A DNA stretch of 64,000 nucleotides from Octopus sinensis (GCF_006345805.1 NC_042997.1:139438001-139502000); one strand, 5' to 3'; shown: positions 7,278 through 62,276, numbered from the stretch's first letter. The notes: generated from the letters alone by a model not told the origin. Program-made: numbers and translations.

Positions 7278-7740
7278 AAATTATAATTAAGGGTATCTAA
7301 GATACCACGATGCTAGATATAGCATCAGCATAAACCTGAATCTATTCACTGCGGTGGTATTTTGACTATATCGCACGAGCAGTTTAGGTGGGCAATTTAA
7401 ACTGGTCGTGTGCATACGTGCATATATATATGTGTGTATACGTGCGTATCTGTAAGTATTCGTATGTTGTATATATATATATATATATATATATATATAT
7501 ATATATATATATATTTGTATTTATGTACTATTTTGTATGTATCCCACTGATGAGGCAAAGCATTTCTTATGCAAAGCCAGAAATCCGAGATCTGAAATTA
7601 TCTAATAATTTTTTGCTAGTTTATTTTGTCTCCTTGTCTTCTCTCCTGGCGCTGTATGAAAATTTAATGTGGTTTTAGAGTCAAGTTTTGGCTGCTATAT
7701 CTAGCATGGGGGTATCTTAGATACCCATCATTATAATTTT
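7278..7740 (+). mobile_element. Non-coding Penelope-like pLTR element with inverted termini and a hammerhead motif
   Basis: ~45-bp inverted ends (aattataattaagggtatctaagatacc.cgatgctagatatagca / tgctatatctagcatgggggtatcttagataccc.tcattataatt); hammerhead motif at 7545-7594; (TA)n on both sides. Confidence 0.65.
7545..7594 (+). ncRNA. Hammerhead ribozyme motif (type I, minimal)
   Basis: ca-CTGATGA-GGC-aaa-GCAT-ttctt-ATGC-aaa-GCC-a-GAAA-TCcgaGA-TC-tg; AUC triplet; one extra A before GAAA. Confidence 0.55.
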
Positions 7741-8384
7741 AATAATATGAGGTTTTTATTCTCATGCAAGCCACTTGATATGATTGGTATTTTAAATAAC
7801 GATCTTATCCTTATTTATATAAATTTATATATATATACATACATACATATATATATATATATATATATATATATATACATATATATATACATATATATAT
7901 ATACACACACATATATATGTGCATACACTAACAATATCAGCAGCAGCAGCGAACGTGTGTATTACAGGATCACGTTAGCGGCTTCCTTAATCCTATTGTT
8001 AGCTTCTCTGTTCCTTCATTTCCTTTATATATCAATCTATAATACTAATAACCCGTGTTAGTAATTGAAATTATTTACCCAACTAAACCCCTACCTCCAT
8101 AAAAAAAAAGCAATGCGGGATCTACATATCTCCAAAATGAAGGATCTCTGTTTAGACGGTGAACAAGATGTGAAATCTGAAGAGGGTGAGAATAAAGACG
8201 GTAAAGGAGAAATGTCGGCCCAGAAACGCTTGTTTCCTTGGAATGGTGAAAATGGTCGTCCATCAAACAAAAAAAAATACATACTTAAAAATAGATAGAT
8301 AGATAGATAGATAGATAGATAGATAGATAGATAGATAGATAGATAGATAGATAGATAGATAGATAGATAGATAGATAGATAGAT

Positions 8385-8760
8385 TTCGATAATAAACTGT
8401 GGACGAGATCTGATAGGGTTGAATGTTTCCACATAGCAATGGAATCAAGCAACTCAGCACAAGTCACTGATGTTTTGGGAATGTGCATCCTATTCCAGAT
8501 GAAGTTCTGGTTTCCCAAACTGGACGGATGTAGTTTATATAAGGATGCTGCTCTCTTCATATTAGATTGTTGTAGTAGAATGGTGAGAAATTTTCTTGAT
8601 GTAATGATCTCTCTGAATATCGGATTATTTTAACTATACCAGAAACCGAACAAACATTTAAGGTACGTTAATAAAAATCCAATTATCCACACTCTATCAT
8701 AACAGGAATCATAAACAATATATCCAATCAAATATGTAGACTTTCGGCAAATGAAATATG
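8385..8760 (+). pseudogene. Decayed Penelope-like (Naiad/Chlamys-type) reverse transcriptase fragment
   Basis: WTRSDRVECFHIAMESSNSAQVTDVLGMCIL...YKDAAL...FLDVMISL...KSNYPHSI resembles PLE FDxxMGSxDxAxxxDLxG / YRDD / FLD / SNHP motifs; internally deleted. Confidence 0.6.
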
Positions 8761-10065
8761 TCGTCTTATTTTATTATACTTTTTCTTGGCTCTATAATAG
8801 TAAGAATATATGTAAGAAGTATGTGCGTATGTATGTGTGTGTGCGTGTGTGTGTATGTGTATGTATATATAAATAGATACATGTGTTATACATAAAGATA
8901 TAAAGACTACTTTGTATGTATGTTACACATTCAATCAAATTTTAATCTTACATGTATTGATGCGTAGTATGACCTGTCGGTCACGCTAGAGGATGAGGGG
9001 AGTGAAACAACTAAAAGAATGCAAGTGAATGACCCTTACAGATGTTAAAAGACAGACAACAGCATTTAGAGGCTTTGCTCCTAAGATGCTGATATTCTAA
9101 TCAAAACAAATCTAAATATTTTTATTGTAAATTGCATTTATTTTATTGGTTTCTCTCTCTCCCTCTCTGTCTCTCTCTCTCTCTCACACACACACACACA
9201 CACATACATGCACGCGCACATAATTATTTATATATGAAATTAAATACTTTTCAAAATATTCACATAACGTATATATAATTGTTAAGTGAATGATAATATA
9301 TCATATATATATATTTGTGCATGTGTGTGTGTGTGTGTGTGTACTTTCAATTTCTCCTTTCATTGTAGCCTTTTTTTTTCTTTGATTACCCTTTCTGTTA
9401 CACACCTTTATTTCCTTTTCTAAGTAAACGATATGATATTTTCCTGGTTTCATCGATCTAAAAAATGTAAACATGCGCGCGAACACACATTCATACACTA
9501 ACACACACATATGCACACGTGCATATCTATGTAGATGCATAGGTGTATATACATATGTATGTGTATACACATATGGAGAGAAATGGTAGGATATATGTCT
9601 ATTAAACAAATGTATATATATGTATATATATACAGAGAGGGGGAGGGATATGTCATAAAATAAATATATATATGTATATGTGCGTGTGCGTGTGCAATCT
9701 TCCTATCAATCCACATATATATATATATATATATATATATATATATATAATATATATATATATTATATATATAATATATATATATATATATATATATATA
9801 TACATAATATATATATGTGTGTGTGTGTAGATATATATATATATATATATACGTTTATATATTTGTTGTGCAAGATTTTTTATGTGAAACCGTGTGTTGA
9901 AAAAGATATTGTTATATTTCGGAATGGTCATTTTGCCAGTTTAGCCAATAAAAACACACGCACTATATATTTGGTGTTATTTTGCTTTAGTGTTATTTAT
10001 TTTTTACATTAATCTTAATCTTATTTCGGCCAGAGTTCTTTTGTCACACTTCTGTGACCGTATCA

Positions 10066-60200: not shown

Positions 60201-60487
60201 TGTGTGCGTATGTGTGTTTGTCCGTTGCCACCGCCTGACAACCGGTGTTGTTGTGGTAACATCCCCGTAACTTAACCATTCGGCAAAAAGAAACCGATAT
60301 AATACGTACCAATGCTTTAAAATATATATATTAAGTACTGAGGTCGGTTCATTCGAGTAAAATATCTGAAGGTAGAGCTCCAGCATGACCGCAGTCTAAT
60401 GACTGAAAAAAATAAAAAAAATAAAATAAAATATAAAAGATACGAAAACACCTCCCTCTTCCCTTTCTCCTTCTCCTCCCTCCTTTA

Positions 60488-61200
60488 GTGTATGTGTGCA
60501 TGTGTGTATGTGTCTGCATTTGTGTGTGTATGTGTATGTGTATGTGCCTATGTATATGTGTGTATGTGTATGTGTATGCGTGTGTATGCGTGTCTGTCTG
60601 TATGTGTGTATGTTTGTGTGTGTCTGTATGAGTCTGTGTGTATGAGTGTATGTATGTCTGTGTCTATATGTGTGTCTTTGCGTGTAGGTGCGTATGTGTG
60701 TATGTGTGCATGTGTGCATGTGTGCATGTGCATGTGTATGTGTGTATGGGTATATGTGTATGCGTGTCCGTGTATCTGTGTGTGTGTCTGTGTATGTGTA
60801 TTGTGCGTTTGTGTGTGTTTGTGTGTGTCTATGCGTATGTGTCTGTATGCATGTGTATGAATATGTGTCTGTGCGTTATTGTGTGCATGTGTGTATGTGT
60901 ATGTGTGTGTATATGTGTATGTATGTATATATACATGAGTGTGTCGGTGTATGTGTGTGTGTGTGTTTGTGTGTCTGTGTATGTGCGTATGTATGTCTGT
61001 GCGTGTATGTGTATGCGTGTCTGTGTGTATGTTTATGTGTGTCTGTGCGTATATGTCTGTATGTAAGTATGTGTATGTGTGTATATATACGTGTGTGTAT
61101 GTGTGTATACACGTGTGTGTGTATGTGTGTCTATGTACCTGTGTGTATGTGTGTGTGTGTATATATATATATATACGTGTGTGTATGTGTTTGTGTTTCA
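60488..61200. repeat. Degenerate (TG/TA)n low-complexity tract
   Basis: About 700 bp of alternating purine-pyrimidine sequence. Confidence 0.9.
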
Positions 61201-61820
61201 TGCGTGTCATGTCAACGTGAATTCTTCTCTTTTCCGGAAGGTAAACTGACGAAATACTCCCAAACGTCTGTGAATCGAGTAATATAATAATTCTAGACGT
61301 ATTATTCGAGTCTTACATTAAACCTGAATACAAAATGACACTTTCTTGTGAATTTCTTGAAAGACTGACAATTTGCTTAGTAACTGTGTTGACTCCAATT
61401 TCGTGTGTGTATGTATTTATTAATGTTTATGTGTGTGTACATACAAACACACACACACACACACACACATACATATTCATACATATGTGTGTCTATGCGT
61501 GTGTATCTGTGTATATGTGTGTGCGTGTGCGTGCATATCTATACACATGCACATATACTTATATATATATAAAGTTATATATATATATATATATATATAT
61601 TATATATATATATATTATATATATATATATATATATATAAGTAGTTGAATGAATTATCTTAATATGGATAATTCGGTTAACCGATACCTGGGTAGCAAAT
61701 TCGCGTCAGAAAAACACGGTTGAAGCTACATGCCAAGGGCAGAGATCACGTGCTTTCGTGTGGAAATTTGTGTGTTTTTTTAAATACAAATAAATGTAAG
61801 AATATATATATATATATATA

Positions 61821-62276
61821 TAAATGAAAGAATGGAGTTGAACGACGATTTAACAAAATTCCTTTATTCTCGACATATGTTTCGAAGGCTGCATATTCCT
61901 AATTTCGAAGGAATAATGGGTGCATTATGCCGCCTTCTCATCAGGAAAAACAAGGAACTTATGTCAGCATCAAGATGAACAAAAACTTTTAGATGACTGC
62001 CCACACGGAGCCCATAGCGATAATCATTATCGCTATGGGCTCCGTGTGGGCAGTCATCTAAAAGCGATAATCATTATCGCTATGGGCTCCGTGTGGGCAG
62101 TCATCTAAAAGTTTTTGTTCATCTTGATGCTGACATAAGTTCCTTGTTTTTCCTGATGAGAAGGCGGCATAATGCACCCATTATTCCTTCGAAATTAGGA
62201 ATATGCAGCCTTCGAAACATATGTCGAGAATAAAGGAATTTTGTTAAATCGTCGTTCAACTCCATTCTTTCATTTA
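61821..62276. mobile_element. Perfect fold-back Penelope-like mini-element with two outward-facing hammerhead motifs
   Basis: Arms 61821-62024 and 62073-62276 are exact reverse complements; a 47-bp direct duplication lies at the centre; (TA)n on both sides. Confidence 0.9.
62148..62234 (+). ncRNA. Type I minimal hammerhead ribozyme plus AATAAA (mirror copy at about 61863-61949 on -)
   Basis: ttttc-CTGATGA-GAAGGC-g-GCATA...TATGC-a-GCCTTC-GAAA-CATATG-TC-gagaa; canonical core, GUC triplet, predicted cut after C62225. Confidence 0.85.

Follow-up and report, generated by a model that had tools for sequence, protein, structure and literature searches.

Tails-out pLTR palindromes in an Octopus sinensis locus are independent insertions of Penelope-like elements, probably arising by twin priming

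A 64,000-nt stretch of the Octopus sinensis genome (GCF_006345805.1 NC_042997.1:139438001-139502000; hereafter the window, with positions counted from its first letter) carries several palindromes built from the pseudo-long terminal repeats (pLTRs) of Penelope-like elements (PLEs), arranged 'tails-out' and mostly embedded in TA microsatellite. The initial annotation proposed that these represent a new class of ribozyme-bearing fold-back retroelements, liable to be mistaken for miniature inverted-repeat transposable elements (MITEs) of DDE transposases. The locus thus raises the question of whether such palindromes propagate as units or are made anew at each insertion. The analysis described here indicates that they are independent, 5'-truncated insertions of several PLE families, whose mirror-image heads were probably formed by twin priming of one RNA.

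Self-comparison of the window, by which the inverted arms were located, confirmed tails-out pairs at the four sites where they had been described, here termed A (7278), B (9870), C (35206) and D (61821). The arms of D (61813-62034 and 62063-62284) are identical at 221 of 222 positions and those of B (9906-10065 and 11857-12015) at 152 of 159, with values of 62/78 for C (35206-35283 and 35321-35398) and 64/71 for A (7278-7344 and 7676-7740), the last alignment taking in a few TA bases. (TA)n surrounds A, B and D as proposed, but the left side of C is (ACAT)n. The tail, expected on the right, is instead on the left in B and D, and the boundaries first assigned to the pairs had missed the one-sided tails at 7741-7826 (A), 9850-9905 (B) and 61640-61791 (D). 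A fifth region, E (30750-31556), joins an inverted pLTR to a reverse transcriptase (RT) fragment.

Candidate copies in the 2.72-Gb genome number 1992 for D, 2427 for A, 659 for C, 1712 for B and 2524 for E. First-look searches scored the best 40 candidates per family and a protein search for relatives of the D coding parent scored 150, so that copy counts throughout describe the top-scoring 40 or 150 out of pools of hundreds to thousands; L-numbers (e.g. L176) denote copies at individual genomic loci. Among 56 D junctions listed, a single set of coordinates recurs (L018/L019), and there the haplotypes differ. An exact pattern applied genome-wide returned 31 D centres, or 25 after two tandem groups were merged, and these 25 independent centres fall, on our own reading, into 16 junction types. 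Six types recur, each with members unlike in haplotype or tail side; the same junction has its tail on opposite sides in L288 and L292, and again in L285 and L291. No unlinked copies sharing centre, haplotype and polarity were found in the sampled D copies, and the identical copies trace to tandem or segmental duplication (L013/L015, L016, L295; L154/L155 are 99.9% identical over 3.2 kb). The shared identical centres by which a self-propagating family was to be recognized are therefore largely absent. Palindrome centres are not inherited but are unique or independently re-made, and the recurring junctions mark hot spots of microhomology close to the 5' end that the copies share: across 32 clean joins the overlap averages 3.0 nt, compared with 0.7 nt for random joins, a rough estimate since it was taken from BLAST ends and excludes joins with inserted bases. 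In L295 (G000:C24:8522713-8523250) the centre of a D palindrome has expanded to six 97-nt tandem units, a minisatellite derived from a fold junction.

The tail follows a strict rule in family D. All 23 D palindromes scored, which were chosen on arm sequence, have one tail, the remaining two of the 25 centres having been left unpaired by the script. Fifty-nine loci bear the GIY-YIG endonuclease (EN), and 20 of them retain both the 3' end and an inverted head. Eight of these 20 combine a tailed body with a tail-less head and 12 a tail-less body with a tailed head, with no other arrangement (Fisher p=8e-6; L300 was assigned by hand from its segments). Each arm of the 12 carries sequence missing from the other, and 4/12 have a head made up of little besides the tail (P=4e-4 under a model of uniform endpoints along the arm). 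In public contigs, three of four joints between opposite strands stop at tail positions +7 to +9. When 29 loci were selected on the tail, 22 proved to be tails-out, the tailed arm being longer in nine, shorter in 11 (three via later deletion) and equal in two; it is also the shorter arm in B of the window.

Both arms of one insertion come from the same source. Within D, 168 of 176 polymorphic site-pairs agree between arms, leaving 8 discordant where 80 would be expected, and when the arms lie 1.2-3.7 kb apart 169 of 180 agree (11 discordant, 64 expected). The ends are constrained too. Tail-less ends are confined to AT sites within ~12 nt, while 12 of the 29 longest arms end at -204 to -195, at a TCATT that we take to be initiator-like, and five extend further. 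This pile-up sits ~75 nt upstream of hammerhead stem I, not at the edge of the ribozyme. Depth rises across the putative start in four public contig sets, contigs being a poor measure of a start site. An 8-bp palindrome, presumably of the cAMP response element (CRE) type, lies ~40 nt upstream of this putative start; it is conserved in L044, L062 and L032, and one perfect palindrome is centred on it.

The TA-tract preference put forward in the initial annotation holds, as 58/61 tail-less ends and 52/61 tail ends have TA-rich flanks against a background of 6%. Among eight B copies scored, three that lie in less repetitive targets (L128, L139, L154) show target duplications of 11-14 nt, mismatched controls reaching up to 8 nt, and a fourth has a longer, partly TA duplication.

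The D arms are pLTRs of a coding element. In L032, on another chromosome, the same arms flank a GIY-YIG open reading frame (ORF), and in L176 and L190 the order is tail, ORF, 3' untranslated region (UTR), pLTR, with the tail running into the ORF; the D tail is thus the 5' UTR of the coding parent. In these two copies the ORF links a PLE-type RT and a GIY-YIG domain to the pLTR, the RT motifs being recognized by eye and the Pfam GIY-YIG match being weak; no Pfam RT family was found in L176, in the E fragment or in the thumb piece of B. The motifs RW(L) and DKT, an EN lacking CCHH, C-terminal Cys pairs, (TA)n targets and a canonical hammerhead place the parent as a Hydra-type PLE under the motif definitions taken from PMC8557442, although L176 showed no CxCx5C motif in its linker. 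In L176, L177 and L178, RT and EN are separated by a long Asn-rich stretch, reminiscent of the N-rich inserts described in rotifer PLEs (PMC3846280). Because other copies continue from the D arms into a GIY-YIG/RT ORF, the proposal that these are products of PLE reverse transcription and not MITEs is upheld; fixed symmetric termini, an inherited interior and a transposase partner are all lacking.

How, then, might one insertion acquire two opposed heads and a single tail? In the model that we infer at each of its steps, the GIY-YIG nuclease would nick both strands of a (TA)n target in a staggered fashion. Through a few A/T bases, one 3' end would pair with the tail at its far end and the other with the pLTR/tail border, and two RTs, predicted to form a dimer, would both copy that one RNA in the direction of its 5' end. 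The far RT would either displace the cDNA of the near RT or stall behind it, and the two cDNA ends would be joined head-to-head via microhomology. On a template starting at the pLTR promoter both copies would run off after ~200 nt, giving a non-coding palindrome with two hammerheads like that of D. As the 5' pLTR is followed by the tail, reverse transcription that begins there on an ordinary transcript would copy only ~350 nt before the end of the RNA, and such run-off could yield non-coding palindromes without any dedicated class of element. In vitro, a Poseidon PLE is reported to cut and extend both strands and to start reverse transcription at two sites bounding the tail, with a dimer modelled (PMC11167929). 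There is an even chance that twin priming of one RNA by a PLE dimer at two fixed internal starts is a regular route of PLE integration. If so, one rule would cover inverted pLTRs, the one-sided tail, tail-only heads and many pLTR-only hammerhead palindromes, and the last would be rebuilt at each insertion from RNAs starting at the pLTR promoter.

The initial annotation had suggested template switch or snap-back priming. In snap-back or self-priming, a full hairpin would be made from one cDNA (or antisense RNA, as proposed in PMC3846280), one tail would be trimmed by the nuclease or by end-joining, and deletions would later break the centre, leaving arms unequal in either direction. In its simple form this fails: a single cDNA folding back copies only what the cDNA holds, so that a tailed head on a longer tail-less body needs further cutting, and the 12 coding copies in which each arm has sequence lacking in the other put plain snap-back out of reach. 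With trimming allowed, same-source arms and microhomology follow directly, perfect centres do occur at naturally self-complementary sites (L014, L052, L062) and post-insertion deletions are observed; L1 ends are reported to show self-annealing with inverted duplication (10.1101/2024.12.14.628481), and the tail has been ascribed to EN-mediated resolution (PMC8557442). Yet 0.4-2.7 kb must then be lost from the tailed arm in 12 of the 20 coding copies, four such losses would stop almost exactly at the pLTR/tail border, a pile-up that this route does not predict, and it offers no reason why a DNA-templated strand should stop in one 12-nt interval. RNA-templated initiation at that border, by contrast, has been shown in vitro (PMC11167929). 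Snap-back with trimming is the main alternative, possible but rather unlikely. The arms might also derive from two RNAs, one per target strand and from the same source locus or ribonucleoprotein, in a dual priming of the kind described as a possibility for L1 (PMC2837659), in which arms could overlap with no strand displaced. If the RNAs were independent, haplotypes should be mixed, whereas the arms are concordant, and two-tailed or tail-less pairs should occur, whereas D is strictly one-tailed. This route is viable only with a common source for both RNAs and an asymmetric allocation of the two start sites, and is improbable. That whole palindromes are transcribed and re-inserted, or moved by a transposase as MITEs, might be suggested by the hundreds to thousands of candidate copies per family and by the six recurring junction types. 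However, the variation of every recurring type in haplotype or tail side refutes this for the sampled D copies, the only identical copies are tandem or segmental duplicates, and the unequal ends lead to RT/GIY-YIG with no transposase, so that there is very little chance of propagation as a unit.

Several observations sit less comfortably with twin priming. The in vitro data come from another clade, with a tail of 30-40 nt, and would be extended to the present families by analogy. Later deletions have damaged palindromes (L030, L046, L047, L056 and E in the window), so that some asymmetry is secondary. Thirty-nine of the 59 EN-bearing loci are not scorable at one end or the other, mostly for want of an inverted head, and 7/29 tail-selected loci have no such head. 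In L313 an inverted, diverged piece with a tail lies ~940 nt upstream, treated here as a separate insertion and otherwise a two-tail exception. Family A is looser with respect to tails, with 16 of 19 distinct pairs fitting, two being two-tailed and one scored as having none, and in D of the window a TA spacer separates arm and tail. Gene conversion could partly account for the concordance of the arms. The samples are best-scoring subsets, and the transcription start is putative.

In the window, D begins with its 152-nt tail on the minus strand (61640-61791), the 5' UTR of the coding parent, followed on the same strand by the spacer, which consists of (TA)n and ~12 nt repeated from the pLTR end (61792-61820). 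No such spacer was seen in the other palindromes examined; it splits the tailed arm and may record an abortive second insertion at the pLTR/tail border. The left arm (61821-62034, minus strand) has a type-I hammerhead core at 61944 with a predicted cut at 61872, and the right arm (62063-62276, plus strand) a type-I hammerhead at 62148-62230 with a predicted cut after 62225; the latter is tail-less and ends in (TA)n. The junction (62016-62111) contains a 47-nt tandem duplication and the TCATT at 62071-62075, again presumably initiator-like.

A hammerhead had been expected in each pair. With our own type-I descriptor, run in strict and relaxed forms (ten shuffled controls gave 0-1 strict match each), an intact hammerhead was found within the window only in D, in both arms; the cores of A, B and E in the window are degraded or variant, and truncation has removed CUGANGA from C. 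Longer C copies (L108, L119) retain the hammerhead by eye, the relaxed descriptor finds one in 14/29 A copies, and the variant cores of B and E were each found in 1/29 copies. Rfam Hammerhead_1 matches D at E=0.0016 and 22.7 bits, short of the gathering score of 34. A whole-window Rfam scan returned no hammerhead among the 150 of 197 matches listed, those being microsatellite-driven miRNA matches.

The B insertion spans a tail of ~56 nt on the inverted arm only (9850-9905, minus strand), a short, tail-bearing inverted pLTR (9906-10075, minus strand), a 5'-truncated and broken ORF (10076-11117, plus strand) and a tail-less 3' pLTR (11857-12015, plus strand) with a variant hammerhead core at 11856 and (TA)n at its end. 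The ORF encodes a presumed RT thumb, a Cx4CxxC linker and, at its C-terminus, a GIY-YIG domain with two Cys inside its core (Pfam E=0.002, below the Pfam cut-off). The translation of 10479-11117 has the Neptune-like features CX2-5CxxC linker, CCHH and C-terminal EN, and B appears Neptune-like, although its motifs would fit Neptune or Nematis alike; a BLASTP comparison of the B EN with the D parent returned no significant match. At 11467-11599 the B 3' UTR contains a second copy of ~130 nt from the element's linker-coding region, and B-family copies often start at -433, forming 696-nt tandems (L135/L136). A partial-tandem or inverted pLTR arrangement with 5' truncation is present more widely (e.g. 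L183, L190).

A consists of an inverted copy of the unit's 3' end, without tail (7278-7344, minus strand), a sense arm (7345-7740, plus strand) with internal (TA)n at 7470-7514 and a degraded hammerhead core at 7547, and a one-sided tail of ~86 nt (7741-7826, plus strand). The A unit begins after its own tail in 7/9 distinct loci, and an eighth locus has that tail in shortened form; tandems were only partial among sampled loci, and no attached coding parent was seen in 58 flanking stretches, some of them overlapping. By its sequence A is a non-coding, retrozyme-like unit of ~500 nt in head-to-tail arrangement. One part of the initial proposal holds, in that A is a multiplied non-coding unit, but it is the single arm that multiplies, not the palindrome. 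Just to the right of A, ~8161-8255 is a separate fragment similar to the D-parent RT (30% over 122 aa).

C is an old tails-out pair of a fourth pLTR family (35189-35398), both arms truncated 3' of the hammerhead CUGANGA, with no tail seen. At E, an inverted pLTR plus tail (30750-31007, minus strand), of a family related to B (74% over 110 nt) and retaining 17 nt of its mirror arm as a stub at ~30991-31007, does adjoin the RT fragment (31010-31556, plus strand) as the initial annotation described, but the two belong to different families. A single element was rejected, as the E pLTR accompanies the same RT in 0/19 other copies, bar one weak 64-nt match, and E is a chimera of a B-related pLTR and the RT of another family. 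The latter (L227, L228, L233) is an abundant PLE that has a 3' end of its own and is rich in pyrimidines on the coding strand; in L227 an unrelated ~200-nt palindrome in (TA)n adjoins the RT. Two further palindromes lie in the window, at 59164-59626 (~460 nt, 72% self-match) and 28757-28810 (a 54-nt hairpin).

The architecture is the known inverted-pLTR layout of PLEs, and the families here are new members but ordinary elements. Inverted heads, one-sided tails and (TA)n targeting have been published for PLEs (PMC8557442, PMC3846280, PMC8969392), opposite-strand hammerhead pairs 100-700 bp apart have been noted (PMC4209133), and the origin of PLE tandem and inverted ends has been termed undefined (PMC8557442). 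A new class of fold-back retroelements is thus not supported, the centres being unique or independently re-made and the layout already on record. What is new is the quantified anticorrelation of tail and head. Twin and dual priming are L1 concepts (PMC2837659); their application to PLE ends was not found in the literature searched, which did not extend to most subscription papers, older Penelope reviews or supplements, and the available part of PMC13282606 does not discuss such palindromes. The constraint of one tail, either arm longer, the same template and a fixed second start favours twin priming over snap-back, and makes the mechanism of PLE integration testable in an existing in vitro system.

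Published EN+ PLE insertions (PMC8557442, PMC3846280) resemble those described here in having an inverted 5'-truncated copy at the 5' end, microsatellite targets, a pLTR hammerhead and a tail at one end only, on either side. Their tails are 30-40 nt, in contrast to ~150 nt in D and ~90-110 nt in A, and many copies here are pLTR-only. The D parent shares RW(L), DKT, the CCHH-less EN, C-terminal Cys motifs, (TA)n targets and hammerhead with the Hydra clade (PMC8557442), but differs in its long Asn-rich linker and in the CxCx5C not seen in L176, its placement being by motifs. Poseidon_Ac (PMC11167929) matches the model in its two starts bounding the tail, AT-rich targets and extension of both strands; it belongs to another clade, and the main text of that report draws no link to inverted heads. 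In L1 twin priming (PMC2837659) a second RT likewise starts from the other strand on the same RNA, leaving an inverted 5' piece, a target duplication and microhomology, but in L1 the position of that second start varies and there is no overlap between the pieces, whereas here the site is fixed and the arms usually overlap, so that strand displacement would be needed. Non-LTR retrozymes (PMC7229834; 10.64898/2026.07.22.740005) are like family A in being non-coding, AT-rich and head-to-tail with a type-I-like hammerhead; A differs in its ~500-nt unit (150-450 bp in retrozymes), its tandems, which are partial among the loci sampled, and one extra base before the GAAA core. DDE MITEs are also short and non-coding, with inverted ends in a TA context. 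Unlike them, the palindromes described here lack fixed termini and have unequal ends, variable centres and a parent encoding RT and GIY-YIG, and they should be annotated as PLE pLTR stumps.

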